This document shows positions 854 through 30,306 of a stretch of 32,000 nucleotides of DNA, in pieces. The translations under genes were made by a program, and so were the position numbers. Source of the stretch: Candidatus Methanophagaceae archaeon (GTDB taxonomy: Archaea > Halobacteriota > Syntropharchaeia > Alkanophagales > Methanospirareceae); assembly GCA_003194425.1 (NCBI GenBank), contig PQXB01000003.1, positions 1 to 32,000 of the forward strand, read 5' to 3'. Each line of letters starts with the position of its first letter. Within the stretch, counting starts at the first letter, position 1. The notes beneath the pieces were generated by a model. It ran no database searches and was not told where the DNA came from. It saw only the letters and a list, made by a program, of their open reading frames with translations.

Positions 854-928
854 CGGAGTGGCGGAGTGGCGGAGTGGCGGAGTGGCGGAGTGGCGGAGTG
901 GCGGAGTGAGCGGAGTGGGCGGGGCGGG
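854..928. repeat. 8-bp microsatellite (CGGAGTGG): 6 perfect copies followed by degenerate copies
   Basis: Perfect units at 854-901, decaying into cggagtgagcggagtgggcggggcggg. Intergenic position. The unit length is not divisible by 3. Confidence 0.95.
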
Positions 929-1074
929 ATTTTTCCTCCGCCGGTTTCATAAAGATTTTTTGTTAGAGAACGGAGCAAATTGAAGACCATATTTCCAGCA
1001 GTTTCCAGCAGCGCCGCCGTAGTAGTTGTGCTTGTCGTTCAATTTGGGCGATGAAATGTTCAAAATTTTCATAA

Positions 1075-1082
1075 TTTTATAT
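1075..1082 (+). promoter_or_regulatory. Candidate archaeal TATA box for clpB
   Basis: ttttatat lies about 29 bp upstream of ATG 1111, which would give a leaderless or short-leader mRNA. Assigned by position and sequence only. Confidence 0.3.
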
Positions 1083-1110
1083 GTCTTGGGATTTCAATTT
1101 TATAAAAGAA

Positions 1111-3750
1111 ATGAGGCTCGACAAACTAACTTTAAAGGCGCAGGAGGCGTTGCAAGAGGCGAAGAACCTCGCGGAAGAACACAACCACCAGCAGATTGGG
1201 GAGGAACACTTGTTGCTGGCGCTGGTTGAGCAGTCAGAGGGCGTAGTCGTCCCGGTGCTGCAGAAAATTGGGGTTGAGATTGAGCAGCTAAAGGCGCGGC
1301 TTGAGGAGCATTTGAACTCCCTGCCGCAAGTGCACGGCGGAGGGCAGGTCGGCGGACCCGAGCAGATTTTCGTGACGCCGAGCTTGAACAAGACGCTGGA
1401 GAGTGCGTGGCGGGAGGCGCAGGCGATGAAGGACGAATATTTGAGCACCGAGCACCTGCTCCTCGCGATTGCCGAAGCGGAAGAGGCAAACCCGTCCTCG
1501 CCAGAAATCCTTAAAGGACTGGGCGTGACGAAGGAGCGGATTTACGAGGCGCTGACTGGAATTCGTGGCGGGCAGCGGGTGGTTGACCAGAACCCGGAGG
1601 GGAAGTACCAGGCGTTGGAACGTTACACGCGGGACTTGACAGACCTCGCTCGTAAGGGGAAGCTTGACCCTGTGATTGGCAGGAACGACGAAATTCGGAG
1701 AGTGATTCAAGTCCTCTCGCGGCGAACGAAGAACAACCCAGTGCTGATTGGTGAGGCGGGCGTGGGGAAGACCGCGATCGTTGAGGGCTTGGCGCAGCGA
1801 ATTGTGAGCGGCGATGTTCCGGAGACCTTGAAGGAGAAGCGAGTCGCAGCGCTGGATATGGGAGCGTTGATCGCGGGCACGAAGTTCAGGGGCGAGTTCG
1901 AGGACCGGCTAAAAGCGGTGCTTAAGGAGATTAACGAGGCGGCGGGTCAGATTATCGTTTTTATAGACGAGTTGCACACCGTCGTCGGAGCGGGTGCGGC
2001 GGAGGGCGCGGTCGACGCCTCGAATATGCTGAAACCCGCTCTCGCGCGGGGCGAGCTCAGGTGCGTTGGTGCGACCACGACCGAGGAGTACCGAAAATAC
2101 ATTGAGAAGGACGCGGCGCTGGAGCGGAGGTTTCAGCCGATTTTGGTTCGTGAGCCAACAGTTGAGGATACAATCTCAATTCTGCGTGGCTTGAAAGAGC
2201 GGTACGAACTGCACCACGGGGTTCGGATTCACGACTCCGCGTTGGTCGCCGCGGCTGTGCTCTCCAGCAGGTACCTCACCGAGCGGTTCCTGCCCGACAA
2301 GGCAATCGACATCGTTGACGAAGCCGCGTCCAAGTTGCGAACCGAGATTGAGAGTATGCCGACCGAGATTGACGAGGTAGAGCGGAAGGTCAGGCAGCTC
2401 GAGATTGAGGAGCAGGCGTTGAAACGCGAGAAGGACAGGGCGTCGCGGGAACGGCTGGCGAAACTCCGCAGCGAACTGGCGGGGCTGAAGGAGAAGGGCG
2501 ACCGGCTCAAAGCGAAGTGGCAGAACGAGAAGGAGATAATTCAGCGAATCCGCGAGGTCAAGGCAAAAATTGACGAGGCGAAGTTGGAGGAGCAGCAGGC
2601 GGAGCGGAGTGGGGATTTGGAGCGCGTGGCGAAGATTCGGTACGGCACGCTCGTCGAGTTGCAGAAGGAATTGGAGTCCGAGAAGGAGCGGCTGGAGGCG
2701 TTGCAGCAGGCGGGGGAGCAGAAAATGTTAAAGGAAGAGGTCGACGAGGAGGACGTCGCCGAGGTGGTTGCGAAGTGGTCGGGGGTTCCAGTGGCGAAGA
2801 TGCTGGAGGGCGAGACCGAGAAACTCGTTCGGATGGAAGAGCGTTTGAAAGAGCGTGTCGTTGGGCAGGACGAGGCGATTTCGCTGATTTCCAACGCAAT
2901 CCGACGGGCGAGAGCAGGTCTCAGCGACCCGAACCGACCGATCGGCTCGTTCATTTTTATGGGCCCCACCGGCGTCGGAAAGACCGAACTCGCAAAGGCG
3001 CTCGCCGAATTCCTGTTCGACGACGAGCGGGCGATGGTTCGGATGGATATGTCTGAGTTTATGGAACGGCACTCGATCGCACGACTCATCGGCGCTCCGC
3101 CGGGCTACGTTGGCTACGAGGAGGGCGGATTTCTTACCGAAGCGGTTCGCAGGCGACCCTACACCGTCGTCCTCTTCGACGAAATCGAGAAGGCACACAA
3201 CGATGTCTTTAACCTCCTGCTTCAAATCCTCGACGACGGCAGGCTCACCGACGGGCACGGCAGGACCGTGAACTTCAAGAACACCGTGATTATTTTGACC
3301 TCAAATGTCGCGAGCCATTTAATGCCCAAGGCACGCCCGCGGGCGCAGGAGCGAGGAGAGGAGTTGCGAGGAGAGAAGTTGCGGGAGCGGGTGCTGGAGG
3401 AGTTGAAGCTGCGGTTCCGCCCCGAGTTCCTGAACAGGATTGACGAAATTATTATTTTTAACCCGCTCGGCAAGGACGAGATAAAAAAGATTGTGGAGAT
3501 TCAAATGCGGTATTTGGAGGAGCGGCTCGCAGCGGAGCGGAAAATCTCGCTCTCTGTCAGCGAGAGCGTAAAGGAGTTAGTGGCGAGCAAGGGATTTGAC
3601 CCTGCGTTCGGGGCGAGGCCGGTAAAGCGGACGATTCAGCGGCTCATCGAAGATCCGTTGTCGGTGAAGATTTTAAGTGGCGAGTTCGCAGAGGGCGAGA
3701 CGGTAAAAATTAATGTCTCGGAGGGGGCGGTTGTGTTTTCACACGATTAA
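1111..3750 (+). CDS. clpB: ClpB-type AAA+ disaggregase
   Basis: The ORF is 1081..3750. The canonical ClpB N-terminus [14 protein letters not shown] starts at the internal ATG 1111. There are two AAA+ modules (Walker A GEAGVGKT and GPTGVGKT), a long coiled-coil middle domain and a C-terminal FGARPVKR motif. Confidence 0.93.
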
Positions 3751-3810
3751 AATGCAGACGTAAGGGAGAGGGATAAAAAGTTGCCGGGTGTGATGCGAAA
3801 ATAGAAAATC

Positions 3811-3818
3811 TTTTATAG
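3811..3818 (+). promoter_or_regulatory. Candidate TATA box for tfb
   Basis: ttttatag lies about 33 bp upstream of ATG 3851. Confidence 0.3.
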
Positions 3819-4753: not shown

Positions 4754-5442
4754 TGGTTGATTTTCGTGCAGACCGTCTCTCGCCCTTCGAGTGCGTCAAT
4801 TATTCGGCTCGGGAAATTGCCGTTCACAAGAACGCAACTCATTTTATTCTGAACCAAAAATCTCGGCAGCTCCGCGTCTACGCAACCGCACCCCTTCCCA
4901 ACCAGCTCTTCTGCGCGGACTCTCTTGAGAAGACGCCCTTGTTCGTCCAGCACTCCGTCCACGTCGGTCAGTTTTACGAACGCCTTTTCGCCAACCCGCT
5001 TCGCAACAAACGCGGCAATCGTGTCCGAAGTAACAGCCCAACTGTGCGGCAAGCAGTTGTCGGCTCTCAAAATTTTGAGGGGCAGAAAGATGCGGAGAGC
5101 AGGTCCCCCCTCGTCCACACACTCAACCAACGGCACAACTCCGCCGTCTGCAAGAAAGAAGCCGTACTGGTGCGTTGCGAGGACAGCCAACCAGTGTGCC
5201 GTCTCGTCTGAGATTGAGAGTTCTTTTTGGAGGGTTCTCACCGCTTCTGCGAACGGACCACCGCCGGGGATTAAAATTATCGTCAAGTCGCCACGCTCTT
5301 CTGCGTAATTCTTAAGCCGCCGCACAATTCCCTTACCTTTTTTTATTAGACTGCCTCCCAGTTTTACTACTACCCGCTCCCTTTTCCTCTCTCTTTTCCT
5401 CTCTCTTTTCCTCTCTCCTTTCCTCTCTCCTTTCCCGCTCAT
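4750..5442 (-). CDS. Amino-acid-kinase-fold small kinase, MfnE-like (archaeal COG2054 type), with an N-terminal (GERK/RERK) repeat
   Basis: Contains VVVKLGGSL...ILIPGGGPFAEAVR...AHWLAV. The size without the repeat is about 205 aa. The first ~20 residues are encoded by the 12-bp tandem array. The MfnE assignment is by resemblance only. Confidence 0.5.
   Translation of the reverse strand: MSGKGERKGERKRERKRERKRERVVVKLGGSLIKKGKGIVRRLKNYAEERGDLTIILIPGGGPFAEAVRTLQKELSISDETAHWLAVLATHQYGFFLADGGVVPLVECVDEGGPALRIFLPLKILRADNCLPHSWAVTSDTIAAFVAKRVGEKAFVKLTDVDGVLDEQGRLLKRVRAEELVGKGCGCVDAELPRFLVQNKMSCVLVNGNFPSRIIDALEGRETVCTKINH
5381..5440. repeat. 12-bp tandem repeat (cttttcctctct x3 plus 2 variants) encoding the GERKGERKRERKRERKRER N-terminus
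   Basis: Read directly from the sequence; in frame with CDS 4750..5442. Confidence 0.9.
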
Positions 5443-5508
5443 TTAAAAGTCTAACTTTAGCTGAAGTTCATTCCGGAGTGCGAGAAGAAGGGCAGGACAT
5501 TTACATTT

Positions 5509-5688
5509 TCATAACTTTAACTTCCCCTTTATCGCCGCCACATCCCTGCTCAGCGCTTCGTATTTATCCCTCGACTCTACCTTTTCACTGTGAATCTCCT
5601 TTAAAAAAGGCAGTGCATTCTTTATTTCACCCGTATCGTCCCGCACATCCTCCAAAATTCCTATCGTCCTGTCCTGCTTCTCCAGCAT
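5509..5688 (-). CDS. Small (59 aa) predicted coiled-coil protein of unknown function
   Basis: ATG at 5688 gives MLEKQDRTIGILEDVRDDTGEIKNALPFLKEIHSEKVESRDKYEALSRDVAAIKGKLKL. It lies on the same strand between the ferredoxin gene and the kinase gene. Its first 17 codons are duplicated immediately upstream. Confidence 0.45.
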   Translation of the reverse strand: MLEKQDRTIGILEDVRDDTGEIKNALPFLKEIHSEKVESRDKYEALSRDVAAIKGKLKL

Positions 5689-5741
5689 TGTCCCGCACAT
5701 CCTCCAAAATTCCTATCGTCCTGTCCTGCTTCTCCAGCATT
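5638..5741. repeat. Perfect 52-bp tandem duplication (5638-5689 and 5690-5741) containing the start codon and first 17 codons of the small CDS
   Basis: The two copies are identical base for base. On the minus strand each reads A ATG CTG GAG AAG CAG GAC AGG ACG ATA GGA ATT TTG GAG GAT GTG CGG GAC. Confidence 0.95.
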
Positions 5742-5751
5742 TTATCCTCTA

Positions 5752-6066
5752 TCAAAATGTTTTTACAGCCCTTCTCGTTTCCCGCAATTCTTGCTTCAAC
5801 TTTTTCACCTCCACCCTCAAACCAGCCAACTGAACGCCCTGCTGTGCTATCTGCGGCAGTTGCGGGCTTTTTAGCTCCAACGCCCCCCACTTGCAGATCC
5901 GGTCGCAGACGCCGCAACAACTGCACTTGTTGTAGTCGACGACCAATTTTTTGTCAACAATTTTCAACGCGCCGTCGGGGCAGACCTGCACGCAGTCTCC
6001 ACAGCCCTTGCACACTCTCAGGTCGACAACAGGAATCCACATTTTTTTTATTATATTTAAATGCAA
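5752..6066 (-). CDS. 2x[4Fe-4S] ferredoxin-domain protein with a charged helical C-terminal tail
   Basis: Two cluster motifs, CKGCGDCVQVCP and CSCCGVCDRIC. The likely start is the internal ATG at 6042 (MWIPVVDL). Confidence 0.75.
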   Translation of the reverse strand: MHLNIIKKMWIPVVDLRVCKGCGDCVQVCPDGALKIVDKKLVVDYNKCSCCGVCDRICKWGALELKSPQLPQIAQQGVQLAGLRVEVKKLKQELRETRRAVKTF

Positions 6067-6099
6067 AATAAAAATAAAGAGAAAGTTGGAAGGAGGAAT

Positions 6100-6189: not shown

Positions 6190-6960
6190 ATGTCTGTCTC
6201 GGTCTTGAACGCTTTTTCGTGCGTCTACGAAAAGATATTGAAGAAGCGAGTATTGAACTCGCCGATCCTCGTGGAGCATATTCTTCTCGTCTTGGACGAG
6301 ACCGACCTTCTCGCAGCGGGCGGGCTGGAGAAACTCAAGCAGTTCGTAAAGTGCTGTCACGCACTAAAAGTAAATGTCGTGACCGTTTATGTCAGCGTCG
6401 TTCAGGGCGGGGACGGGCAAGGCGGGGACGGGCAGGGCAGGGGCGGGCAGGGGCTGGACGAGGAATTGCTGCAGCGGGCGTACTCGCACCTTCGTGAAGA
6501 AATTGCAAAGGCGTTGAGCAAAGAGAACGCGTCGATCGCGATTTACGCAAACACACCAACTCCAAACTCTGCTCCAAACTCTGCCGACTACCTGGATCCT
6601 GAATCCCTGGATCCTGAATCTCTAAATCCTAACCCCAAGAAAAAAATAAATATTTCAATCGGGCTGGGAGGCAGGAGCGAGCTGACGAAGGCGATAAAAA
6701 AGATTATGAGCAGGGTGCAGGCGGGGGAGGTGGAGCCTGATGAAATAGACGAGAAACTGATTGAGTCCGAATTAATCTTCAAATCCGAGCCCGACCTCGT
6801 CATTCGGTCTGGAGCCACGCTACTAACTGATTTCCTGATTTGGCAGTCGGTGTACAGCGAGTTTTACTTTACGGATGTCAATTGGGCGCGGTTCAGGAAA
6901 ATAGACCTGCTCCGTGCGGTTCGCGACTTTCAGTGGCGAGAGCGGCGATTTGGTCGCTGA
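6190..6960 (+). CDS. cis-prenyltransferase (UPP synthase) family protein with degenerate catalytic motifs; possibly an accessory (Nus1/NgBR-like) subunit
   Basis: The C-terminal half is UPPS-like (EPDLVIRSG...DFLIWQSVYSEFYFTDVNW...RERRFGR*). The N-terminal DGNRRWA motif is replaced by HILLVLDETDLL and the FSxENxxR motif is absent. It carries three in-frame tandem-repeat inserts. Confidence 0.65.
   Translation: MSVSVLNAFSCVYEKILKKRVLNSPILVEHILLVLDETDLLAAGGLEKLKQFVKCCHALKVNVVTVYVSVVQGGDGQGGDGQGRGGQGLDEELLQRAYSHLREEIAKALSKENASIAIYANTPTPNSAPNSADYLDPESLDPESLNPNPKKKINISIGLGGRSELTKAIKKIMSRVQAGEVEPDEIDEKLIESELIFKSEPDLVIRSGATLLTDFLIWQSVYSEFYFTDVNWARFRKIDLLRAVRDFQWRERRFGR
6406..6450. repeat. 15-bp tandem repeat x3 (ggcggggacgggcaa) encoding GGDGQGGDGQGRGGQ
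   Basis: Read directly; in frame within CDS 6190..6960. Confidence 0.9.
6560..6620. repeat. Two adjacent in-frame duplications: 12 bp x2 (6560-6583, PNSAPNSA) and 15 bp x2 (6591-6620, DPESLDPESL)
   Basis: Perfect copies read directly from the sequence. Confidence 0.9.
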
Positions 6961-7241
6961 ACTAACTTCCTCTTTTTAACAGCATTTTAACAGCATCTCC
7001 ATTTGGGGTAAAGCCAAAGTCAGGAGGCGTAGGAGAGAGAAGGAAGAAGAAACGCAGCAGTTAGGAGGGCGGAACACACCCAAGGATTTCATCAGGCTCC
7101 AAAACAGTCTTGAGAGTATTGGGGGAGGTAAAGTAGAAAAAAGACAGAACAGGAGTTTATACAAAGAAAGCGAACCTGTTAAAAGGGGAAGGAAGAAAAG
7201 AAATACCAAAGAAAAGGATTTAAGATGTTTGATAAAGAGTT

Positions 7242-7285
7242 ATTCAAGATATTGGAAAGAGCAATTCAAGATATTGGAAAGAGCA
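7242..7285. repeat. Perfect 22-bp tandem duplication (attcaagatattggaaagagca x2) in the pyrG upstream region
   Basis: Copies at 7242-7263 and 7264-7285 are identical. It lies inside a 43-codon ORF (7225..7356) that ends 1 nt before the pyrG ATG. Confidence 0.9.
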
Positions 7286-7330
7286 AGAGGGAGAAGACAG
7301 GAGGTGAGCGGGCAATTCCTCCCGCCCTGA

Positions 7331-9022
<1,692 letters not shown>

Positions 9023-20769: not shown

Positions 20770-20807
20770 ACATATGTTCTAACATATGTAATAGTATATG
20801 CATATGT
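20770..20807. promoter_or_regulatory. Cluster of palindromic ACATATGT motifs (2 perfect, 1 at 7/8); candidate protein-binding site
   Basis: ACATATGT at 20770-20777 and 20782-20789; gCATATGT at 20800-20807. They sit in an A/T-rich patch between wHTH copy 1 and the tail remnant. Confidence 0.3.
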
Positions 20808-20903
20808 CTTAAAAAGATTTTCGCTTTTTTTCTATTCTATTTTCTATGAAACCCGAAAAAATCCAAGAAATCGCAAAAACCGAAATTGACCTAAAAAACT
20901 ACT

Positions 20904-21227
20904 CTAACTCTTCTGTATGCTTTCTATTAGCGATTTGCCGAGTTCTGAGAGCCTGTAGTAAGTTGCATTTCCGTGCTCCTTCTTCTCCACGACCCCGTGT
21001 TTGAGGAGCGAGTTCCCCGCGTCGAACCTGCCCCCCATCCCGCGCAGCCCGCCGAGAATATTTGTAGGGTCGATCCCGGTGTTCCTTGAGATCTCCGCGG
21101 GATACGACGCATTTGGATAAATTTTATAAAGAAACATCACGATTTCCGTCCTCACCCTGCTCCTCCTGAGAGAACGCAAAATCTCCTCAAACCGCACTTC
21201 TTCGCTCCCCTCGCTTCCCTCAGTCAT
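20904..21227 (-). CDS. Winged-helix (ArsR/MarR-like) DNA-binding protein, copy 1
   Basis: RSRVRTEIVMFLYKIYPNASYPAEISRNTGIDPTNILGGLRG...LLKHGVVEKKEHGNATYYRLSELGK. 107 aa. Confidence 0.7.
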   Translation of the reverse strand: MTEGSEGSEEVRFEEILRSLRRSRVRTEIVMFLYKIYPNASYPAEISRNTGIDPTNILGGLRGMGGRFDAGNSLLKHGVVEKKEHGNATYYRLSELGKSLIESIQKS

Positions 21228-21269
21228 TCCTTTCCCTCCTCCCGCTCTGTCATTCCTTTCCCTCCTCCC
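21223..21269. repeat. 26-bp-period duplication (21-nt perfect core gtcattcctttccctcctccc x2) that includes the wHTH copy 1 start codon
   Basis: Cores at 21223-21243 and 21249-21269. The upstream copy creates a 9-codon uORF (ATG 21253) whose TGA overlaps the genuine ATG (21227) as ATGA. Confidence 0.85.
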
Positions 21270-21644
21270 TCACTCCCCAAAAAGTTTTTCAAGCACATCA
21301 AATAGATTTTTTACCGTGAACGGCTTCCACAAGTATTCTTCAGCCCCCGCGTCCAGCGCCGCGTTCCTCTGATCCGGCGTGCCCAACGCCGTAATTGCGA
21401 CAATCAAAGCCTCTGGGTCGTGCTTTTTTATCTCCTTTATCGCCTGAATCCCGTCCATCACTTCCATCACCAAATCCATCGTAACAAGGTCAGGCTTCAA
21501 TTCCTTGTACTTCTCCACAGCCTCCAGTCCGTTCTCCGCAAAGCCCACCACCTCGTATTTCCCCCCTGCCTGCTCCAGCATTTCGACCAGCATCTCCCGC
21601 ATATACGCCGCGTCTTCCACAATCAAAATCCTTTTCTTCTCCAT
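21270..21644 (-). CDS. Single-domain CheY-like response regulator (receiver only)
   Basis: RILIVEDAAYMRE...KPDLVTMDLVMEVMDG...ITALG...YLWKPF. 124 aa with no output domain. Confidence 0.88.
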   Translation of the reverse strand: MEKKRILIVEDAAYMREMLVEMLEQAGGKYEVVGFAENGLEAVEKYKELKPDLVTMDLVMEVMDGIQAIKEIKKHDPEALIVAITALGTPDQRNAALDAGAEEYLWKPFTVKNLFDVLEKLFGE

Positions 21645-21654
21645 CTTCTTTCTC

Positions 21655-21786
21655 CTTCGCCCTCTTCTTCGCCCTCTTCTTCTCCCTCCCTCCTTTCCAC
21701 CCTCTTGTCCCCTCTCCTTTCCACCCTCCTGTCCCCTCTCCTTTCCTCCTTCCTTTCCCCTCTCCTTTCCCCCCTCGCTCTCCTTC
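21655..21786. repeat. Composite tandem arrays filling the HK-RR spacer: 12 bp x2 (21655-21678) and a 24-bp period x~4 (21691-21786)
   Basis: cttcgccctctt x2. tcctttccaccctcttgtcccctc is followed by copies with 1 or more substitutions. The sequence is purine-rich on the transcribed (minus) strand. Confidence 0.85.
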
Positions 21787-21827
21787 TCTCTGCTCCCGTC
21801 TTCATTCCCCTTTATTTATCTTTGTCC

Positions 21828-24128
21828 TTACCTTTGTCGTTTTGGGATTATAAAAAAGAATTTTGAGCCTTTCCCGAGTTCGCTCGTCGCCCAGACCCTC
21901 CCGCCGTGCAATTTTACATACTCCTTAACAATTGATAAACCCAGTCCGAGACTGCCTGACTTCCGCGTTAGCGAGGTGTCGACCATATAAAACCGCTCAA
22001 AAATCTTCGGCAGATCCTCCGCGGGAATTCCAATCCCTGTGTCCGCAACGCAGCACCGCACTTCTTCGCCCCTGTCTTCTACCCTGTCAACCCTGATCTC
22101 AATTCTACCGCCAGAGGGTGTGTATTTAATTGCGTTGGAAATCAGGTTAGAGAAGACCGCGACCACCTGCTGCTTGTCCGCCTGAATCACTTCTCCTACC
22201 TCCGAGACGACGGTGGAGATTTTTTGTTCCTTCTTCGCTGCCTCGGGTTCGAAGCCCTTAACCACTTCCTGCACCACATCCGAAAGCGAGAACTCCTTCA
22301 AATTTAACTTTATTTTCCTGCTGTCAATCCGCGCAAGTTCCAACATCCGATTAATCATCTTCTCAAGTTCCTTCGCACACTGCTCGATATTTTGAATGTA
22401 ACGCCGCCCCTTGTCCGGCAGTTCACAGCGCTCCAAGAGGCTTGCGTAACCCACGATCGGCGCAAGAGGGGACCGCATCTCGTGGTAAGCCACATTAAGA
22501 AACTCCCGCTTCATATCGTCCAGCTCTGTAAGTTTTTCGCAGGTCTCTCGCAGCTCGTCCTCCTTCCTCTTCAACTCTGTAATGTCAAGCAAGGAGGCAA
22601 TGCACCTTTTTGACCCCTTTCCTGCCCTTGCCTCTGGCTCTGTTTCTACCCCTGCCTCTGTCCCTGCCTCTACCTCTGCCCCTGCCTCTACCTCTGCCCC
22701 CGGAATCGGTTCTATCCAGGACTGCACATTTCGTATCTCGCCACTGCGGCTAACGAACTTGAAAGGGCAGCACGCGGGCGCTTTCCCGTCCCTCCGCTTG
22801 GCGCAGTAATTCTGCACCCGCACCCTGTCCTCGTCAGCGATGAAATCGCCCCACTTCTTCCCCCTCAGTTCGCTCCTTGAGTAGCCACTCAGAGCCTCAA
22901 ATTCCTTGTTCGCCAACGAAATCCGCCCGCCAGCCTCAATGAGACACAAAGCGGTGAGTGCATGCTCAAAAATCACCCTGTACCGCTCCTCTGCGTCCCT
23001 TAACTTCTTCTCAATCCGCTTTCGCTCGGTGATGTCTCGGAAAATCGTTAATTTTGAGACCGTGCCGTCAATGTTCCTGAGCGGCGTCTCAACGAGGTCG
23101 TAAGTCCTCTCCTTCTTGCGAGAGTGCCACTCCCACTGCACTGTCTCGCCCTTTCTGACCTCTTCCTGTTTGCACAGCGGACAGGGTGTCGTCCTGTTAT
23201 GAAAAACTTTGTAGCAGACCTCGCCAACATTGTAGCCAAAAACCTCAATTAAAGTCCTGTTCATAAACTCCACCTCGTAGTCCTTTGAGACGATGTAAAC
23301 GCCGTCAGGCAGGGTCTCAAGAATCAAATTCAGGTTGTCTCGCTCCTTCTTTATCTTCTCTCGCTCCTCCTTTTTCCTCTCCTCCAACTCCTCTTCCAAC
23401 TCCTCCTCTTTTGTTACATCTCGGCTTACACGGACGGTCCCAACCGGCACGCCGAGTTTGTCCTTTAGCAGCGCCGCGGACATTCGAATGCGAACCGGCT
23501 TTTTAGCCTTGTTTAGCACGGTCGTTCGGTAATTCTTGAGCTCCCCCTCTCGCTCCACAATTTCTGCTATTCTCTCCGCTTCGTCAGGGTCGGCGAAGAA
23601 CCTTTTGTTTGGCGTGCCGAGGACCTCTTTTGCAGTGTAGCCCATATAATCTTCCGCGGCTTTGTTCCAGGACCGCACTTTTCCGTCCAAATCCACGACG
23701 ACAATCGCGTCCGCAGAACTCGCAATAATGTTGTCCAAATAATCTTTTGTCTCTTTTAGCCGCTCCTCGCCCTTAGCCCGCTTCTCGCTCACGAGTCCGA
23801 TTGTGTACGCGACCGCGACAAAAATGACGCTCCTCTCGAGGATCCTCTCGAGGACAGCAACCGAAAGAGACGGGGTCAAAGGCGGGGTCAGAGGACAAGT
23901 AACAAGAATGTAGAATAGGCTGAGAAAAAGGGCGACATAAATCGCCTTCTTGTGGTACCACACCCCGGCTAAAAGGATGGGAATGTAGAAGAGGTGGGTG
24001 TAAACGCCTGTCTCTCCTTTAGAGGCGAAATAAACGGTCACGACAACGCAGAATAAAACACTGAAAAACAGTACAAGAAATTTACAATTCAATTTCTTTG
24101 CCAGCGTCCCCATTCTTCCTGTTTCCAC
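21828..24128 (-). CDS. Membrane-bound multi-PAS sensor histidine kinase
   Basis: N-terminal TM helices and several PAS-like segments. H-box HEMRSPL. ATPase boxes NAIKYT, DTGIGI and GSLGLGLS. Repeat-derived insert EVEAGAEVEAGTEAGVETE. Confidence 0.88.
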   Translation of the reverse strand: METGRMGTLAKKLNCKFLVLFFSVLFCVVVTVYFASKGETGVYTHLFYIPILLAGVWYHKKAIYVALFLSLFYILVTCPLTPPLTPSLSVAVLERILERSVIFVAVAYTIGLVSEKRAKGEERLKETKDYLDNIIASSADAIVVVDLDGKVRSWNKAAEDYMGYTAKEVLGTPNKRFFADPDEAERIAEIVEREGELKNYRTTVLNKAKKPVRIRMSAALLKDKLGVPVGTVRVSRDVTKEEELEEELEERKKEEREKIKKERDNLNLILETLPDGVYIVSKDYEVEFMNRTLIEVFGYNVGEVCYKVFHNRTTPCPLCKQEEVRKGETVQWEWHSRKKERTYDLVETPLRNIDGTVSKLTIFRDITERKRIEKKLRDAEERYRVIFEHALTALCLIEAGGRISLANKEFEALSGYSRSELRGKKWGDFIADEDRVRVQNYCAKRRDGKAPACCPFKFVSRSGEIRNVQSWIEPIPGAEVEAGAEVEAGTEAGVETEPEARAGKGSKRCIASLLDITELKRKEDELRETCEKLTELDDMKREFLNVAYHEMRSPLAPIVGYASLLERCELPDKGRRYIQNIEQCAKELEKMINRMLELARIDSRKIKLNLKEFSLSDVVQEVVKGFEPEAAKKEQKISTVVSEVGEVIQADKQQVVAVFSNLISNAIKYTPSGGRIEIRVDRVEDRGEEVRCCVADTGIGIPAEDLPKIFERFYMVDTSLTRKSGSLGLGLSIVKEYVKLHGGRVWATSELGKGSKFFFIIPKRQR
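22651..22698. repeat. 18-bp tandem repeat (cctgcctctacctctgcc x2 perfect, preceded by a degenerate copy) encoding the EVEAGAEVEAG insert
   Basis: Read directly; in frame in the histidine kinase gene. Confidence 0.9.
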
Positions 24129-24208
24129 CGTTTTGCAGTTAGAAATTAATTTATAAGTGTTTTATCTTTTTAAATGTAAAATAAAAGGAGAAGAGGGGAG
24201 AGAAGAAG

Positions 24209-24643
24209 ATGGGAATAGAAGCAAAAACATTAGAAGTAAGGGATGTAATGACGCCGCGGGTCGTTACCGCGGATGAGGAGACGCCGCTCACCAAAGTGTC
24301 GACCGAGATGGAGGTGGCGGGAATCGGGAGCGTTGTGATAACAAGGCAGGGAAAGCCAGTGGGGATCGTCACCGAGCGGGACATTGCACTGAATGTCATA
24401 ATGAAGGACCGAATGCCAAGCGAGGTAAAAGTGAAAGAGGTGATGTCGTCGCCGTTGGTCACGATTGACCCGTTTGCGTCGGTTGAAAAGGCGTGCGAGC
24501 TACTTGCAGAGAAGAGGATAAGACGGCTGCCGGTGGTTGAGGCGGAGGCGGAGGGAGACAGGCTTGTTGGAATTATAAGCGTGAGGAACATCTTAACGAG
24601 AAATCCTACCTCGGTGACCAAGTTTTATTACGAGGGTTCTTAA
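24209..24643 (+). CDS. CBS-domain pair protein
   Basis: Two CBS motifs (VRDVMTPRVVTA...IGSVVI...GIVTERDI and VKEVMSSPLVTI...IRRLPVV...GIISVRNI). 144 aa. Confidence 0.85.
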   Translation: MGIEAKTLEVRDVMTPRVVTADEETPLTKVSTEMEVAGIGSVVITRQGKPVGIVTERDIALNVIMKDRMPSEVKVKEVMSSPLVTIDPFASVEKACELLAEKRIRRLPVVEAEAEGDRLVGIISVRNILTRNPTSVTKFYYEGS

Positions 24644-24737: not shown

Positions 24738-25877
24738 TTATTCCGTGTCCTCAAACCGCTCCTCCAGCCTCTTCAACACATTCGGCAGCGTCGTGTACTC
24801 CATTTCCTCAACCGGCAGCCTGTGTGGCTCGAACGGTCCGTGCGCTCTCATATAATCCGCGACCTCTGTCGCCCTCCTCCTCGCGAGGTCAAAAGCAGGG
24901 TCGTCGAACAAGTCCGCAGTCCCCACGAGCCTGCCCTTACTCACTTGGAAGCCAGCAGCGAGAACCCGCGGCGGTCCGTCGAACCGAGTGCACTGCGAGT
25001 ACCTGAACGGAACCGGAATTATAGGTCCGTTGTGCGAGCCTCGCATCCAGCCACTAACGAGGTAAGGCAGCGAGAACGGCTCTAAAACCTCGCCCAACGC
25101 AGGCAGTCCGCCCTGCGACCGCACCAACGCCACTGGGTCGTCCTTGCCCACATATTTTCCTGCAGTGAAGAACAACTTCTCGGTGCTAACTACCGCCACC
25201 GGCTCGTCCTCTGGAATTGGGCTCGCCCCCGTGCCCTTCGGAAAGACGCGCTTTATCACATATTTGCTCTTCGCCCCAATCAACGCAAGTAGCGAGTACA
25301 ACTCCTCGGGGCACCGTAAAAAGACCTTCTTCTTCTCTTTTATGTCCCACACTTCAAAGACGAACCCGTCGTGCATCGTTGGGTCAATCACGAGCCCCGC
25401 GGTGTTGAACGGGTCTGCGAACATCTTGTAAATCGGGTAGTTGAACGCACCCGGCTCGGTCTTGTCCATCATAAACGCGACCAACGGCTCGGACCCCCGC
25501 TCTTCAAATTCCATCTCTGCAATCCCCGGTCCCATTCCGCGAATGTTCCCGCTGAACGCGTCCACGAGCAAGTCCTGACCCGCACCGTGCAACTTCAGCT
25601 CCTTCGCCACCTCGGTCGCCGCCTCAAATGTCTCCCACGCCAACCCGTGAATCTCCTCCGAGTCCGTCCCTTTCCTGTGGCTCATCAGCAACTGCAAATC
25701 GTCGCCCGCGTGCAGAACGTGGTAGCTCACGAGCAGCCCCTCGCTCTTCGCCTTCTCCATCCTCTCTCTCGCCTTCTCCTCCAACTCAGGTCGCACCGTC
25801 GAGTGCCCCGGAAATCCACCTACGTCTGCCTTTATCAAACTTACTGTTATTTTTTCCATTTTTTCCATTTTTTCCAT
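24738..25877 (-). CDS. fbp: Bifunctional fructose-1,6-bisphosphate aldolase/phosphatase (class V FBPase)
   Basis: KITVSLIKADVGGFPGHS... and collinear similarity across ~370 aa to the archaeal FBPA/P family. The N-terminus MEKMEKMEK comes from a triplicated 9-bp unit, and the ancestral start is probably ATG 25859. Confidence 0.9.
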   Translation of the reverse strand: MEKMEKMEKITVSLIKADVGGFPGHSTVRPELEEKARERMEKAKSEGLLVSYHVLHAGDDLQLLMSHRKGTDSEEIHGLAWETFEAATEVAKELKLHGAGQDLLVDAFSGNIRGMGPGIAEMEFEERGSEPLVAFMMDKTEPGAFNYPIYKMFADPFNTAGLVIDPTMHDGFVFEVWDIKEKKKVFLRCPEELYSLLALIGAKSKYVIKRVFPKGTGASPIPEDEPVAVVSTEKLFFTAGKYVGKDDPVALVRSQGGLPALGEVLEPFSLPYLVSGWMRGSHNGPIIPVPFRYSQCTRFDGPPRVLAAGFQVSKGRLVGTADLFDDPAFDLARRRATEVADYMRAHGPFEPHRLPVEEMEYTTLPNVLKRLEERFEDTE

Positions 25878-25878
25878 T
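25852..25878. repeat. 9-bp unit (ttttccatt) x3, each copy containing an in-frame ATG of the FBPA/P gene
   Basis: Perfect copies at 25852-25860, 25861-25869 and 25870-25878. Minus-strand ATGs lie at 25859, 25868 and 25877. Confidence 0.95.
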
Positions 25879-25930
25879 TTTCAGTCCTCTTATTTTTAGT
25901 TTTTAGCAAGCATAAAATTAGTTAAAGTTC

Positions 25931-26419
25931 TCACACCTCCGCTCCGAACACCCGTTCTGCCTCCTCGTCCCTGCGTTTGTGCTCTTGCTTTATCATTTCC
26001 CCGCGCTTGAAATACTGCTCTGCTTTCTCTTCTTCCCCCGTAGTTTGGTAAAGCAGCGCGAGATTGTAGCAAGCCGAGATGCCCTCGTCCATCAAATATC
26101 TGCTGAGGTTCAGCGCTGCGTTGAAGAACCCCTTCGCCATCTCGTACTGCTCCAAACTTGCGTAAGCCACGCCGCAGTCGTTGCAGACTTTAGCAAGCGT
26201 AGGACGAATCGGCTCTTTCCTCACGATTTCCTTGTAAATTTCTATCGCCTCCTCGTACCTCCCCTCACCAAGAAATTTCTCGCCAACGAGGAGCAACTCT
26301 TCCGCCGTCTTTTCTCCCTCTTCGCTCCTCTTTCCTTCCTCTTCCTCCGCTTCCCTCTTTCCCTGCATAAAATTACAAATGCCTCTTAACCTTATTAATC
26401 TGCGCAAATAAAACTTCAC
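25931..26419 (-). CDS. TPR-repeat protein
   Basis: LLLVGEKFLGEGRYEEAIEIYKEIV...GVAYASLEQYEMAKGFFNAALNL...YNLALLYQTTGEEEKAEQYFKRG gives about three TPR units. GTG 26419 overlaps the upstream stop (GTGA); an alternative ATG lies at 26368. Confidence 0.7.
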   Translation of the reverse strand: MKFYLRRLIRLRGICNFMQGKREAEEEEGKRSEEGEKTAEELLLVGEKFLGEGRYEEAIEIYKEIVRKEPIRPTLAKVCNDCGVAYASLEQYEMAKGFFNAALNLSRYLMDEGISACYNLALLYQTTGEEEKAEQYFKRGEMIKQEHKRRDEEAERVFGAEV

Positions 26420-27609
26420 CCGAGCCTGCCCGCGTCTTCTCTCACTCGCATTCTGAACGCTTTGTGCAGTTTTATAATCTCTGCTCTCCTCCGCTCGTCT
26501 GCACGCTCGAGGTTGTGAAAATACGGAATTTCAAAACCAATAAACCCACCAAACCAACTAAACCCACCAAACTCGCCACGCTTCTCTTCTTCCCTCCCAC
26601 GCTTCTTTTCTTCCCTCCAACGCTTCTCTTCTTCCCTCCGCCGCACCTCTTCAAACACTGCCCTCTTTCCGCCCCGCGCAAAAGCGTCGCACAAAACCCA
26701 AAGTGAGCCCACATTCAGAGACGCGAGCCCGACATTCGCGTAGGGAACTGCGTACTCGTTCCCGTTGAAGACGACCGCGACTCCGCCGTGCTGTGCGACC
26801 TCGCGCAGCATTTTGTAGTCGGTAATGCTGTCGCCCACCGCGATGACTTCGCTCAGCCGCACGCCCTTCGCTCTCGCGATTTTCCGCACTGCCTCCGCTT
26901 TCCGCTCGCCTCCCACCACCCGCGTCGCCCCGAGCACGTCGTAGCCCAGAGCGGGCAGTTGGCGAAAAAAGAACTCGTCCAACCGACTCACAAATCGCTC
27001 TCTCACTGCCTCGTCAATGCTGGAATAAAGTCCGATTAAGTCTTCCTCGACTTTTTCCACCAAAGAAAAAAAAGCCTCTTTCTCTCCCAGCTTCGCTCTC
27101 GCACCCTCCAAGTCCAACCTCGTGCAGACAATATTTTCCTCGGGGACCCCCAGCCTGCGACCGACATTGTAAGCGTGCTGCTCGTAGCTCGTTGAAATTA
27201 TGTAAACCTCCCACTTCTCTCCCCCCTTTCCCTCCTTTTCTCTCTCCTTTCCCTCCTTTTCTCTCTCCTTTCCCTCCTTTTCTCCACCCCCTTCCTGCAG
27301 CCGCTCAAACAACTCTCTCGCACCGTCCACCAACTTCGCACGCTCCGAGACCCGTTTTATCTCCGCCTCGGTTACGCCGTGCAGCAGGAGAAAAGGGACA
27401 ATTAAGGCGAGCGTGTCGCCGGGCTCGTAGCCTTCGCGTTCCTGAAGCGAAATAAAGTCGTCGTATTTGCTTATCGCCTCAAAGACGCGGGCTCCCTCCT
27501 TTCCTCCCTCTCCCGCCTTGCCCTCCTTTCCTACAAGTTTCATCACCTCGTAGGCGTTGTCCTGCGGCGATAAAGGTCCCTCGAGGTCAAAGAAAATTGT
27601 CCTTCGCAT
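26416..27609 (-). CDS. HAD-superfamily protein resembling the proteins annotated EhaR (energy-converting hydrogenase A subunit R)
   Basis: The N-terminus MRRTIFFDLEGPLSPQDNAYE carries the DxEGP HAD motif I position. GDSITDYKML and NGNEYA follow near the C-terminal half. Two 21-bp repeat-derived inserts. The EhaR likeness is from memory of that family's N-terminus. Confidence 0.45.
   Translation of the reverse strand: MRRTIFFDLEGPLSPQDNAYEVMKLVGKEGKAGEGGKEGARVFEAISKYDDFISLQEREGYEPGDTLALIVPFLLLHGVTEAEIKRVSERAKLVDGARELFERLQEGGGEKEGKEREKEGKEREKEGKGGEKWEVYIISTSYEQHAYNVGRRLGVPEENIVCTRLDLEGARAKLGEKEAFFSLVEKVEEDLIGLYSSIDEAVRERFVSRLDEFFFRQLPALGYDVLGATRVVGGERKAEAVRKIARAKGVRLSEVIAVGDSITDYKMLREVAQHGGVAVVFNGNEYAVPYANVGLASLNVGSLWVLCDAFARGGKRAVFEEVRRREEEKRWREEKKRGREEEKRGEFGGFSWFGGFIGFEIPYFHNLERADERRRAEIIKLHKAFRMRVREDAGRLG
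26576..26638. repeat. 21-bp tandem repeat x3 (ccacgcttctcttcttccctc, 1 mismatch per copy) encoding REEEKRW/REEKKRG/REEEKRG
   Basis: Read directly; in frame. It is preceded by an imperfect 18-bp x2 repeat (26541-26576) encoding the FGGF motifs. Confidence 0.9.
27226..27285. repeat. 21-bp tandem repeat, ~2.9 copies (ctttccctccttttctctctc), encoding EKEGKER repeats
   Basis: Read directly; in frame in CDS 26416..27609. Confidence 0.9.
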
Positions 27610-28831: not shown

Positions 28832-28841
28832 TTCACTCCAA

Positions 28842-28882
28842 CACACCCTAAAAAACACACCCTAAAAAACACACCCTAAAAA
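28842..28882. repeat. 14-bp tandem repeat x3 (cacaccctaaaaaa) in the divergent promoter region
   Basis: Units at 28842-28855, 28856-28869 and 28870-28882 (the last lacks one A). Confidence 0.9.
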
Positions 28883-28897
28883 CAAAAAGTCGCACAA

Positions 28898-28905
28898 TTT
28901 AAATA
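28898..28905 (+). promoter_or_regulatory. Candidate TATA box for tiaS
   Basis: tttaaata lies 25 bp upstream of the TTG start at 28930, implying a leaderless mRNA. Confidence 0.3.
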
Positions 28906-28929
28906 TCTTGACATTGAATTTAAAGAGAA

Positions 28930-30306
28930 TTGATTATCGGAATAGACGACACAGACTCGAGAAAAGGAATGTGCACCACCTACTTGTGCGCGGTTTTAGT
29001 CGGCGAACTTGAGCGGTTTGGGCAGGTCTCGAGACCACGACTGGTAAGACTCAACCCCTGCGTCCCGTTTAAGACAAGAGGCAACGGTGCGGTCTCTTTT
29101 GAGGTGCGTGTGGCACGAGCAGAAGCACGAGCAGAAGCACGAGCAGAAGAAGTGAAAAAAGTGAAAGAAGTTGTCAAATCGCGAGTGAGCGAGTTCTCGG
29201 AGTTGGGCGAGGAGGGGACGAACCCGGGTGTTGTTTTTGTTGAGGAACAGAATTCAGGTTTAGGTAAAGGAGAAATAGGCGTTTTAAAGCGTTTTTACGA
29301 GGACGCGGTCAGGGAAGTGCTGACGCTGGAGGACGCCTGCGAAGTCATTTCAGAGTTGCGTTTGGACTGCTTTGGGCTGAAGAACAGGCGTGGTTTAATT
29401 GGGGCTTTGGCTGCTGCTTCTTTCCTGGTGCTGCAGAGGAGCCAGAAGACCAGGAGCCAGAAGACCGGTCTCTGCGACTGCGACTACGACTTTACCTACG
29501 AACTGGTGGCGTACAGGAGGAGGGAGCGGTGGGGGACGCGGAGAATTATTGACGAGGCGAGCGTGTGGCGGGCGGCTGCGGCGACTTACCCGCTGGTCTG
29601 GGACACCGTAGACGCAGCGAACAAGCAGGTTGTCTTCGCTCCGCATTCTCCGTGCCCCGTCCTCTTCGGGCTGCGGGGCGACAGCGTAGAAGCCATTTAC
29701 AAGGCTTACGAACTGATTCAGCCGAATGCCGAACCCGTAGAGCGAGCAGAGTTGTTCGTGACAAATCAAGGCACGGACTTCCATTTAATCGACACGAGAA
29801 AGAAAAGAGAAGAGAAACTGGAACTGCAGGACGACCGCTCCTACATTTTGGACGGCGTGGTCTGCTCCAACCCCAGGACAATAAAAGGAGGGCACACGGT
29901 CTTTTCGCTCTCGCTCTCACTGCCAGCGGGCAGTGAAGAGGAAAAACTCGAGTGCATTGCCTACGAGCCGACGAAGGGCTTTCGTGCTGTTGTGAGGCGA
30001 CTCCGAGTCGGCGACGAGGTCACAGTTTACGGGTCTCTAAAGAAAGGGGCGGTAAATCTTGAGAAGTTGGAGGTGAGGAAATTGAACCTGCTGGAAGTGA
30101 GGAATCCCAGGTGCGAGAGGTGCGGTAAGGCAATGAAATCGGCTGGCAGGTCGCAGGGCTACCGGTGCAAACGCTGCGGGACTTTCTGTGCGGAGAAGGA
30201 GGTGAAGGAGGAGGAAAGGGGAGTTTTGAAGGGGTTTTACGAAGTCCCGCCGGTTGCGAGGCGGCATATTTCTAAACCCTTGGTTCGCACTCGTCCGAGC
30301 AAATGA
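28930..30306 (+). CDS. tiaS: tRNA(Ile2) 2-agmatinylcytidine synthetase TiaS
   Basis: Hallmark N-terminus (M)IIGIDDTDSRKGMCTTYL. OB-like region and C-terminal zinc ribbon CERCG...CKRCG. Repeat inserts ARAEARAEARAE and RSQKTRSQKT. Confidence 0.88.
   Translation: MIIGIDDTDSRKGMCTTYLCAVLVGELERFGQVSRPRLVRLNPCVPFKTRGNGAVSFEVRVARAEARAEARAEEVKKVKEVVKSRVSEFSELGEEGTNPGVVFVEEQNSGLGKGEIGVLKRFYEDAVREVLTLEDACEVISELRLDCFGLKNRRGLIGALAAASFLVLQRSQKTRSQKTGLCDCDYDFTYELVAYRRRERWGTRRIIDEASVWRAAAATYPLVWDTVDAANKQVVFAPHSPCPVLFGLRGDSVEAIYKAYELIQPNAEPVERAELFVTNQGTDFHLIDTRKKREEKLELQDDRSYILDGVVCSNPRTIKGGHTVFSLSLSLPAGSEEEKLECIAYEPTKGFRAVVRRLRVGDEVTVYGSLKKGAVNLEKLEVRKLNLLEVRNPRCERCGKAMKSAGRSQGYRCKRCGTFCAEKEVKEEERGVLKGFYEVPPVARRHISKPLVRTRPSK
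29113..29148. repeat. 12-bp tandem repeat x3 (gcacgagcagaa), perfect, encoding ARAEARAEARAE
   Basis: Read directly; in frame in tiaS. Confidence 0.95.
29437..29466. repeat. 15-bp tandem repeat x2 (aggagccagaagacc), perfect, encoding RSQKTRSQKT
   Basis: Read directly; in frame in tiaS. Confidence 0.95.

Follow-up and report, generated by a model that had tools for sequence, protein, structure and literature searches.

Variable-number tandem repeats (minisatellites) in prokaryotes evolve by slipped-strand mispairing and are usually few, concentrated in surface or contingency genes. Low-complexity regions in prokaryotic proteins arise by replication slippage of short repeats, a general process in prokaryotes that is found mainly in young and fast-evolving families (Persi et al., 2023, PMC10120016). 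The closest described system is that of the tandem repeats of Borgs, linear low-GC extrachromosomal elements of Methanoperedens in which each replichore is coded on one strand (Schoelmerich et al., 2023, PMC9879509). Borg repeats have an A-enriched coding strand and lie mainly in proteins that are extracellular or in the membrane; they do not use the TGC codon, their peptides are almost free of cysteine, and 14-38% of their intergenic units are divisible by 3 (PMC9879509). They have been presented as a Borg hallmark, virtually absent from the Methanoperedens hosts, and used to separate Borg from host DNA (PMC9879509). Here we describe short tandem arrays in a 32-kb stretch of DNA from a Candidatus Methanophagaceae archaeon (assembly GCA_003194425.1, contig PQXB01000003.1, positions 1 to 32,000), the whole of which is called the window below. 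The window is ordinary chromosomal DNA of the ANME-1a species sp003194425, not a Borg, and what is new here is Borg-like, minisatellite-type repeat dynamics on an ANME-1a chromosome and within ancient housekeeping genes, the kind of repeat itself being known. The arrays are most probably the product of lineage-specific, ongoing tandem duplication and slippage, with selection keeping those insertions that are in-frame, hydrophilic and tolerated.

Array census, reading frame and composition

Tandem Repeats Finder (TRF) returned 107 rows for the window, which were reduced by merging overlapping rows and keeping those with a score of at least 30. The 71 non-redundant arrays that remained (37 with a score of at least 50, 14 with at least 80, and 27 perfect) comprise 2,622 bp of array sequence, while 100 dinucleotide-preserving shuffles gave means of 4.8, 0.1 and 0 arrays at the three thresholds and 1.2 perfect arrays; moreover, most genic arrays vanish when codons are shuffled within genes. 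A first-pass annotation, made from the sequence alone, had claimed more than 25 short tandem arrays, a number that the census exceeds and that is not due to chance, and TRF found arrays at essentially all of the coordinates it listed, exactly or a few bases off. Its description of the arrays as mostly perfect was overstated: about half of the 14 genic arrays it named are perfect, against matches of 78-95% in the others (by TRF, 90% at 15077-15151, 78% at 22622-22700 and 88% at 6403-6452). By exact scan there are 27 perfect arrays with at least 24 nt and at least two copies. Many arrays have only about two copies, and lengths range from 15 to 87 bp, except for the 104 bp of one 52-bp duplication. 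Only one array, at 854-908, is a repeat in the strict sense used for Borgs (perfect, at least 50 nt and at least three units); the 27 other perfect arrays are shorter, and the longer arrays are 72-96% matched.

The units of each locus are distinct, with a best identity of 67% between units of equal length, and the arrays originated independently at each locus. Since the unit sequences are locus-specific, a shared mobile repeat of the REP or MITE type was rejected. A CRISPR array was likewise rejected, as the copies are directly adjacent with no unique spacers; a real CRISPR array, beside TiaS in the ANME-1 genome Hel0.bin107 (locus L001, 12073-18428, repeat GTTTCAATCCTTGTTTTATTGGATTAGCCTCTGCGAC), looks quite different and accounts for the apparent repeat content of 23% at that locus.

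The TRF period is divisible by 3 in 45 of the 48 arrays that lie wholly within genes and in 9 of the 18 between genes, which bears out the reading-frame rule proposed in the first-pass annotation. Three genic exceptions were found, namely a 9-bp unit called as period 8 through an indel, a unit of 17/18 bp that likewise contains one, and a 13-bp unit in 1.9 copies. Units of 8, 14, 22, 26, 28 and 52 bp, which had been said to occur only between genes or across start codons, are indeed all so placed. Frame-shifting phase variation of the type known from bacterial contingency loci was not seen, as genic arrays and genic indels stay in frame.

The sense strand of most arrays had also been described as GA-rich, and the computed values agree: in genic arrays with a score of at least 50 it is 67% purine in plus-strand genes and 83% in minus-strand genes, as compared with 55-58% in non-repeat coding sequence. 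The bias reverses with gene orientation, and therefore tracks the direction of transcription; most intergenic arrays between co-directional genes are biased likewise. Both A (33% on the array sense strand vs. 23.5% elsewhere) and G (47% vs. 33%) are raised, G the more so, such that the bias is one of purine and not of A alone. At the protein level, E (2.7-fold), R (2.2-fold), G (1.9-fold) and K (1.7-fold) are over-represented in the array peptides, and L, V, I, Y, M and F are depleted 4- to 7-fold. Because every frame of all-purine DNA codes only for E, K, R or G, with no stop codon possible, part of this peptide composition would follow from the DNA bias itself. A cysteine-rich (CE/CG)n insert in the class I fumarase alpha subunit (FumA) departs from the charged E/R/G/K pattern.

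To compare the window with other archaea, density was expressed as arrays of score at least 50 per 10 kb, with one TRF setting for all sets. Inside long open reading frames (ORFs) the window has 10.65, as compared with 0.19 in other ANME-1 (361 kb), 0.21 in Methanoperedens (190 kb) and 0.62 in Methanosarcina (235 kb); outside long ORFs the respective densities are 15.8, 1.3, 0.2 and 13.6. The genic density is thus about 50-fold above that of other ANME-1, and it is this genic richness that is unusual, intergenic richness having a precedent in Methanosarcina. A metagenome scan with the neighbouring MTD gene brought no contig of the same species but a further 113 kb of ANME-1 sequence from another locus, in which the overall density is 0.62 per 10 kb. 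Beyond the window, same-species flanks have 3.6-8.2 arrays per 10 kb, and syntenic relatives 0-0.7; together, about 50 kb of one neighbourhood of the sp003194425 genome was surveyed. Thermophily or high GC was rejected as a sufficient cause because the ANME-1a relative L101 (FW4382_bin035, predicted optimal growth at 65 °C) and ANME-1-THS (GC 50%) are both without arrays. The Methanosarcina loci near TiaS (L046, L071, L075 and others) contain many AT-rich extragenic tandem repeats, most with unit lengths not divisible by 3.

Copy-number polymorphism and lineage-specific inserts

Exact look-ups of the TFB and response regulator sequences led to about 20 syntenic contigs in NCBI, ENA, JGI and Logan, and, at the nucleotide level, twenty conspecific contigs share 98-99% identity with the window. 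An identical TFB gene lies on JAOQIL010000009.1 of GCA_026133975.1, an ANME-1a genome assigned to Methanophagaceae 'gen. nov. 3' and to GTDB ANME1a sp003194425 (Laso-Perez et al., 2023, PMC9894754, supplementary table). The same species includes 'ANME-1 G37' (GCA_003194425.1, from an enrichment culture) and ex4572-4, and has a predicted optimal growth temperature of about 68 °C (PMC9894754). The exact look-up of FBP aldolase/phosphatase had no match, since strains differ in how long its MEK repeat is. Among the species-representative genome contigs scanned there was no conspecific TiaS; the best match to this protein is at 67%, the relatives in those genomes being ANME-1 (Methanophagales), with 59-68% identity, and then Methanoperedens, with about 48%.

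Allele lengths were obtained by locating the flanks of each array in the conspecific contigs and measuring the distance between them. Length varies in 17 of 23 arrays with at least three copies in the window, in 5 of 14 with 2.5-3 copies and in 7 of 32 with fewer than 2.5 copies, the steps being mostly a whole repeat unit or sub-unit, with up to eight length alleles per array. The instability of the arrays therefore rises with copy number and proceeds by unit steps, as in minisatellites. The FumA hexamer array has eight length alleles in 11 genomes (the window and 10 siblings), of which that of the window is the longest and the shortest has eight units (48 bp) fewer; the alleles vary in internal unit order as well. 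Other arrays span 47-95 bp (kinase GERK), 34-52 bp (NuoL-like (TQ)n) and 45-110 bp (the octamer upstream of ClpB), and many two-copy duplications are fixed in all strains. Repeat-unit indels are the main difference between strains: pairwise alignments contain 288 indel events, of which 185 fall in an array plus or minus one unit, a mask that covers 13% of the window, as do 90 of the 129 distinct indels of at least 3 bp. At least 70 of these 129 are tandem duplicates of neighbouring sequence, including sites that are single in the window and double in siblings. The preference for multiples of three seen in the arrays recurs strongly in between-strain indels, 68 of 78 being divisible by 3 in coding sequence vs. 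27 of 51 in intergenic sequence. Polymorphism among contigs this similar substantiates the suggestion of recent or ongoing expansion that had been made from the perfection of the copies.

The length variation is also seen in the encoded proteins. Among siblings, the amino-acid-kinase-family protein is 191-238 aa long, the UPPS-like protein 203-276, CTP synthase 554, 557 or 560, NuoL-like 2 628-634, the HAD hydrolase 371-414, FumA 303-332 and FBP aldolase/phosphatase 373-380, and conspecific FumA proteins, at 89-96% identity, split into separate clusters under 90%-identity clustering. In a separate part of FumA (residues ~90-125; ~14890-14990, minus strand) the variants P0122 and P0123 have IFFVRLGGGE..VNLAEIEDGIRE where the window has LFFVKFGNGRGSGRNLNLSLVEIERGIIE, a difference suggestive of the replacement of an allelic segment within the species.

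Comparison with orthologues indicates that the inserts are confined to this lineage. Seven proteins (TiaS, the PAS histidine kinase (HK), FumA, the UPPS-like protein, the HAD protein and two NuoL-like proteins) were aligned with orthologues from other ANME-1 at about 60-75% identity, none of which has the inserts; CTP synthase was compared with solved structures only. The nearest HK orthologues beyond the 99% conspecific cluster are 73% identical and 707-717 aa long vs. 757-768 aa here, and every length difference is a tandem duplication in sp003194425 (TPPL, LERI, an 11-aa E/K/R linker, a 28-aa GAEVEA segment and RVD). Window-specific insertions of at least 7 aa in HK, NuoL-like 1, NuoL-like 2 and TiaS match TRF arrays with one exception, and deletions are few. 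The TiaS inserts are absent from 30 aligned orthologues, FumA orthologues have an 'AYEC-E' seed at the place of the (CE/CG)n run, and the inserts of the UPPS-like protein are specific to the sp003194425 lineage. All HAD homologues are without the 24-aa EKEGKER insert and have a non-repetitive C-terminal segment where the window has repeat-derived sequence. The housekeeping proteins are 3-13% longer than their orthologues, and insertions outnumber deletions in sp003194425 proteins. That housekeeping genes gain low-complexity inserts, as the first-pass annotation had claimed for a range of core enzymes, is thereby established by alignment for TiaS, HK, FumA and the NuoL-like proteins.

Judging from the alignments, the inserts sit in loops, linkers and termini. 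The CTP synthase arrays align to the interdomain linker and to loops of the glutamine amidotransferase (GATase) domain of 1vco, and the FumA repeat aligns to 7xky as a pure insertion, with residues 46 and 47 on either side. In one other ANME-1 lineage (locus L110, 5811-6015, Logan SRR27899006) the UPPS-like proteins P0318 and P0320, 55% identical, have 6-bp repeats of their own that encode HS, SR and SA runs in the same loops, the rest of the 6.4-kb contig (5.5 kb) being array-free; this is a weaker, independent version of the repeats described here.

The principal arrays are as follows, with coordinates in the window, strand, and length changes among conspecific siblings relative to the window.

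854-918 (+): intergenic 8-bp CGGAGTGG x8, ~160 bp 5' of the ClpB start; TRF score 121, perfect over 854-908; six lengths, -32 to +33 bp, in 9 conspecific contigs
3351-3387 (+): ClpB, 15-bp x2.5; fixed, with no length change in 10 siblings
5377-5435 (-): N-terminus of the amino-acid-kinase-family protein, 12-bp x4.9, GERK/RERK; alleles -24, -12 and +24 bp
5638-5741 (no strand): perfect 52-bp x2, intergenic, between the ferredoxin-like ORF and the kinase gene; TRF score 208; single copy in 6 of 9 siblings, the other 3 longer by +96 or +117 bp
6403-6452 (+): UPPS-like (NgBR-like) protein, 15-bp x3.3, QGGDG; alleles -15 to +45 bp; none in orthologues
6560-6620 (+): UPPS-like protein, 12-bp x2.1 (PNSA) and 15-bp x2 (LDPES); perfect, fixed and lineage-specific
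7234-7286 (+): intergenic 22-bp x2.4 upstream of CTP synthase, found by TRF
8146-8431 (+): CTP synthase, four short arrays (QLE, RRKS, EVEA, FDG); gaps in the 1vco alignment
~8745 (+): CTP synthase, 9-bp site duplicated in 9 siblings; polymorphic tandem insertion of 9 or 18 bp
12505-12661 (-): hypothetical 298-aa protein, 9-bp x3.4 (EEG) and 12-bp x2.1 (ENQT), found by TRF; alleles -9, 0 and +9 bp; -12 bp in one sibling
15077-15151 (-): class I fumarate hydratase alpha (FumA), hexamers (TGCGAG/TGCGGG)n encoding (CE/CG)n; the most variable array in the window
15919-15964 (-): NuoL-like protein 1, internal R/E/G-rich repeat in a 33-aa lineage-specific insert; fixed
17198-17263 (-): NuoL-like 1 N-terminus, 12-bp-based TAGR/TAGT in a 30-aa lineage-specific insert; eight alleles, -39 to +18 bp
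17679-17796 (-): three adjoining intergenic arrays (11, 28 and 12 bp) 5' of the 93-aa ORF and NuoL-like 1; >90% purine on the transcribed sense strand; alleles -28, -16 and +12 bp
17988-18032 (-): NuoL-like 2, perfect 6-bp arrays (TQ)n and (TR)n; alleles -12 to +6 bp, with TQ/TR unit shifts
20293-20352 (-): N-terminus of EarA-like protein 1, 12-bp, KEKR; alleles -15 to 0 bp; orthologues ~15 aa shorter
20656-20755 (-): intergenic 9-bp x9 and 7-bp arrays between the two EarA genes; alleles -18 to +9 bp, one sibling +93 bp
21219-21269 (-): 26-bp x2, copying the ribosome-binding site and ATG of EarA-like 2; a 9-codon ORF begins in the upstream copy, and its TGA overlaps the genuine ATG (ATGA); duplication missing in one sibling
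21651-21776 (-): 12-bp and 24-bp arrays in the spacer between HK and response regulator; alleles +12 to +48 bp and -48 to 0 bp
22622-22700 (-): HK, 18-bp GAEVEA array forming the 28-aa insert between PAS and HisKA; alleles -18 to +6 bp
23338-23408 (-): HK, 21-bp and 12-bp E/K/R-rich arrays forming the 11-aa linker insert; fixed
23831-23854 (-): HK, 12-bp duplication (LERI)
25849-25881 (-): start of FBP aldolase/phosphatase, perfect 9-bp x3.7 (MEKMEKMEK); six length alleles
26297-26357 (-): TPR protein, degenerate 21-bp x3, E/K/G-rich; fixed
26534-26639 (-): HAD-family protein, 18-bp (FGGFSW) and 21-bp (RREEEKR); alleles -18 to +51 bp and 0 to +30 bp
27214-27284 (-): HAD-family protein, 21-bp x3.4 (EKEGKER) forming the 24-aa insert; alleles -21, 0 and +21 bp
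28840-28882 (no strand): perfect 14-bp x3.1 in the divergent promoter region of aminotransferase and TiaS; one unit fewer in 5 of 6 siblings
29113-29171 (+): TiaS, perfect 12-bp x3.1 (RAEA) and 9-bp x2.4; alleles +12 and +24 bp
29437-29491 (+): TiaS, perfect 15-bp x2 (RSQKT) and 6-bp (CD) forming a 10-aa insert; fixed; none in 30 orthologues

The spacer between HK and the response regulator (21645-21827, minus strand) is about 180 nt of near-pure purine on the sense strand, with many GGAGG motifs, and consists mostly of arrays. Some of the intergenic arrays, to go by their positions, could alter leader length or duplicate a start site and so change expression.

The genes around these arrays are those of a chromosome. 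Pfam assignments comprise ClpB, TFB, the amino-acid-kinase-family protein, the UPPS-like protein, CTP synthase, a DNA methyltransferase, a PP-loop ATPase, Dph2, the class I fumarase alpha subunit, two NuoL/Mrp-like membrane subunits, two EarA-like regulators, the response regulator, the PAS histidine kinase, FBP aldolase/phosphatase, a TPR protein, the HAD hydrolase, an aminotransferase, TiaS and two DUF116 proteins, and a tRNA-Ser gene is also present. GC is 50-57% across the window, with genes on both strands. The moderate GC and the housekeeping, chromosome-like context perceived at first reading are thus corroborated, the latter by core archaeal genes (TFB, CTP synthase, Dph2, TiaS, FBP aldolase/phosphatase) and by the ANME-1a contigs. 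A conserved ANME-1a gene order (window 15294-24128, minus strand; L101 10001-19145; L102 10001-18517) runs from the PAS histidine kinase through the response regulator, an EarA-like gene, a ~84-aa ORF, a second EarA-like gene and a second ~84-aa ORF to a NuoL/Mrp-like gene, a ~63-93-aa ORF and another NuoL/Mrp-like gene. Two ORFs are probably spurious: at 5478-6071 (plus strand) siblings annotate a 96-aa ferredoxin-like gene on the opposite strand, and at 24151-24621 (minus strand) they annotate a 144-aa CBS-domain gene at 24209-24643 (plus strand).

The UPPS-like protein (6190-6960, plus strand) appears to be a non-catalytic subunit of the NgBR/Nus1 type in a heteromeric cis-prenyltransferase, because it has no N-terminal catalytic DGNRR-type motif, with LLVLDETDLL in its place, and ends in a C-terminal RFGR that corresponds to the RXG motif; this form is kept in ANME-1 and Alkanophaga orthologues. 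Conspecific contigs also differ in gene content: loci L093 and L096 (4513-6776) have an extra three-gene block of ~2.3 kb with a PIN-domain protein between the FBP aldolase/phosphatase and CBS genes, and in loci L081-L090 a variable set of genes of the sugar-modification type (PIG-L, ATP-grasp, PHP, GFO_IDH_MocA) precedes the window start and the hexapeptide-repeat gene. The catalytic subunit of the species' A-type ATP synthase, also upstream of the window (L082-L087), contains an intein with a LAGLIDADG domain and is 1074-1081 aa long.

Origin of the arrays

The pattern is probably explained by an unusually high rate of tandem duplication of 6-52 bp sequences in this lineage, followed by minisatellite-like expansion and contraction. 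A seed, which would usually be a purine-rich E/K/R/G-coding stretch in a loop, linker or terminus, or else a purine-rich 5' leader, would be duplicated once, presumably through microhomology-mediated template switching or slippage. From two or three copies onward, slipped-strand mispairing or unequal recombination would shift the copy number by whole units, and faster with more copies; the whole-unit changes and their rise with copy number are what the strains display, and slipped-strand expansion and contraction is their likely mechanism. Purifying selection would then remove changes that break genes, leaving survivors with units divisible by 3 that are hydrophilic, disorder-prone and outside the protein core, whereas intergenic arrays would be exempt from the frame constraint. 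The in-frame, hydrophilic and peripheral pattern is observed, and purifying selection is its presumed cause. Most inserts are probably near-neutral passengers, near-neutrality being an assumption of this account. Long homopurine tracts tend to form structures, and this tendency is one candidate for the underlying cause; by analogy with the duplication mutator rad27 (FEN1) of yeast, an altered replication, polymerase or lagging-strand-processing factor is another candidate.

Several considerations weigh against this explanation. We infer both the first duplication of a seed and the cause that confines the process to this lineage, and genome-wide generality of the array excess is extrapolated from the one neighbourhood surveyed. 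The variation seen is between assemblies, each of which is a population consensus. For FumA, an AlphaFold2 model (21-sequence alignment) has a mean pLDDT of 45.6, too low to confirm a disordered surface loop. Function, or else a mutational bias tied to transcription, could lie behind the intergenic purine-sense bias, the GGAGG-rich leaders and the persistence of a cysteine-rich insert in an Fe-S enzyme. The likeness to Borg repeats also has its caveats: the bias here is G+A where that of Borgs is A, the arrays are shorter and often imperfect, with a single array in 32 kb as long and perfect as is required of Borg repeats, and one of the repeats encodes cysteine by TGC.

Function is at the centre of the most serious competing account, according to which the charged, disordered inserts tune the behaviour of enzymes and regulators or their thermostability, as proposed for Borgs, and variable intergenic arrays provide either evolvable switches of expression or unstructured leaders rich in Shine-Dalgarno motifs. 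Many two-copy duplications are fixed across strains, the inserts are biased to E, K, R and G, and the arrays are concentrated at start sites, in leaders and in an operon for signalling and regulation (HK, response regulator, EarA), one of them duplicating the ribosome-binding site and ATG of EarA-like 2; moreover, the same UPPS-like protein loops contain repeats of independent origin in an unrelated ANME-1 lineage. However, no common function links the unrelated host enzymes, the length of the high-copy arrays drifts freely between strains, with up to eight alleles, and the E/K/R/G composition is expected from all-purine DNA together with purifying selection. The thermophilic relatives L101 and ANME-1-THS are, in addition, array-free. 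Adaptation, with its genic and intergenic forms taken jointly, is in our view an unlikely source of the pattern as a whole, though less so for the intergenic arrays, and duplication and slippage under purifying selection are preferred.

The remaining alternatives are far less probable. Repeats are known to cause assembly errors, and an older JGI assembly (L084) has split genes, but that short-read assemblers made the arrays or their length differences is very unlikely because about 20 independent assemblies (from NCBI, ENA, JGI and Logan, with different samples and assemblers) have the same arrays in the same places, with different copy numbers, and because arrays of 15-87 bp, bar one of 104 bp, are assumed to be shorter than a typical read. 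ORFs are, furthermore, intact throughout, and alleles vary in internal unit order and not in length alone. Inheritance of ancient low-complexity regions from the ANME-1 ancestor, simply retained here, would fit the variable, charged character that host loops already have in relatives (the 'AYEC-E' seed, an EEELEEE linker) and the invariance of some weak arrays; against it, the orthologues of all seven aligned proteins are without inserts, and the copies are identical or nearly so in DNA and polymorphic in number within a species whose genomes are 98-99% identical, which makes this origin highly improbable. We give equally little credence to a Borg-like or other mobile extrachromosomal element with captured housekeeping genes: the repeat behaviour is Borg-like, yet GC is 50-57% and not low, genes are on both strands, the genes are core ones, the contig was binned with an ANME-1a genome, and the gene order is partly common to other ANME-1a. 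Collectively, the within-species polymorphism, the orthologue alignments and the gene content favour ongoing tandem duplication and slippage on the sp003194425 chromosome, filtered by selection.

Relation to Borg and other repeats

The occurrence of the same repeat behaviour on an ANME-1a chromosome indicates that the process is not tied to Borgs. It is conceivable, though we hold it to be rather doubtful, that repeat formation of the Borg kind is not peculiar to Borgs but a cellular process that can be switched up in archaeal lineages, either by an altered replisome or lagging-strand factor or by a shared mobile function. Were this true, the ANME-1a G37 enrichment would provide a chromosomal, culturable example in which to study the mechanism of Borg repeats and the formation of new disordered segments. 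As the species includes a genome from an enrichment culture (PMC9894754), repeat dynamics could be followed experimentally. The window offers a natural comparator for asking whether the machinery of the cell or that of the element makes such repeats, and a prokaryotic case of the rapid birth of low-complexity segments in ancient protein families. The arrays also supply many hypervariable markers for tracking ANME-1 strains, and carry a warning that protein lengths, gene calls and 90%-identity clustering are unstable for sp003194425. In the literature searched on tandem repeats in ANME-1 or related orders, we found no report of pervasive genic arrays.

Like variable-number tandem repeats elsewhere, the arrays change by whole units, become more unstable with copy number and have many alleles between strains; unlike most prokaryotic minisatellites, they occur at about one per kb and in core metabolic and informational genes. 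They resemble the low-complexity regions described by Persi and colleagues in that short repeats proliferate within coding sequence, but do so here in old, conserved families (CTP synthase, fumarase, TiaS, FBP aldolase/phosphatase) and in a single lineage. Methanosarcina chromosomes match the window in density outside long ORFs (13.6 vs. 15.8 per 10 kb), whereas their genes are nearly array-free (0.62 vs. 10.65 per 10 kb of ORF) and their units are AT-rich and not purine-rich. In Plasmodium falciparum, surface loops of conserved enzymes contain low-complexity inserts that are polymorphic between strains and take their composition from a genome bias, and yeast rad27 (FEN1) mutants accumulate short tandem duplications flanked by microhomology and show repeat instability; both are eukaryotic, and serve as analogies only.

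The system that the arrays most resemble remains that of Borgs, as the first-pass annotation had proposed, a resemblance that stands for behaviour (the frame rule, the uniqueness of units and the change in copy number) and fails for membership, the DNA being an ANME-1a chromosome. In both systems repeats are arranged head-to-tail in genes and in spacers, with genic units divisible by 3 and intergenic units often not; units are locus-specific, copy number differs among close relatives, and homologues elsewhere are without the repeats. The coding strand is compositionally biased, here not to A alone, and the peptides are rich in disorder-promoting residues, here with the (CE/CG)n run of FumA beside them. 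The arrays described here differ in lying on a chromosome with GC of about 53% and genes on both strands, in being hosted by cytoplasmic housekeeping enzymes, and in the fraction of intergenic arrays divisible by 3 (9 of 18), which is somewhat above the 14-38% of Borgs.

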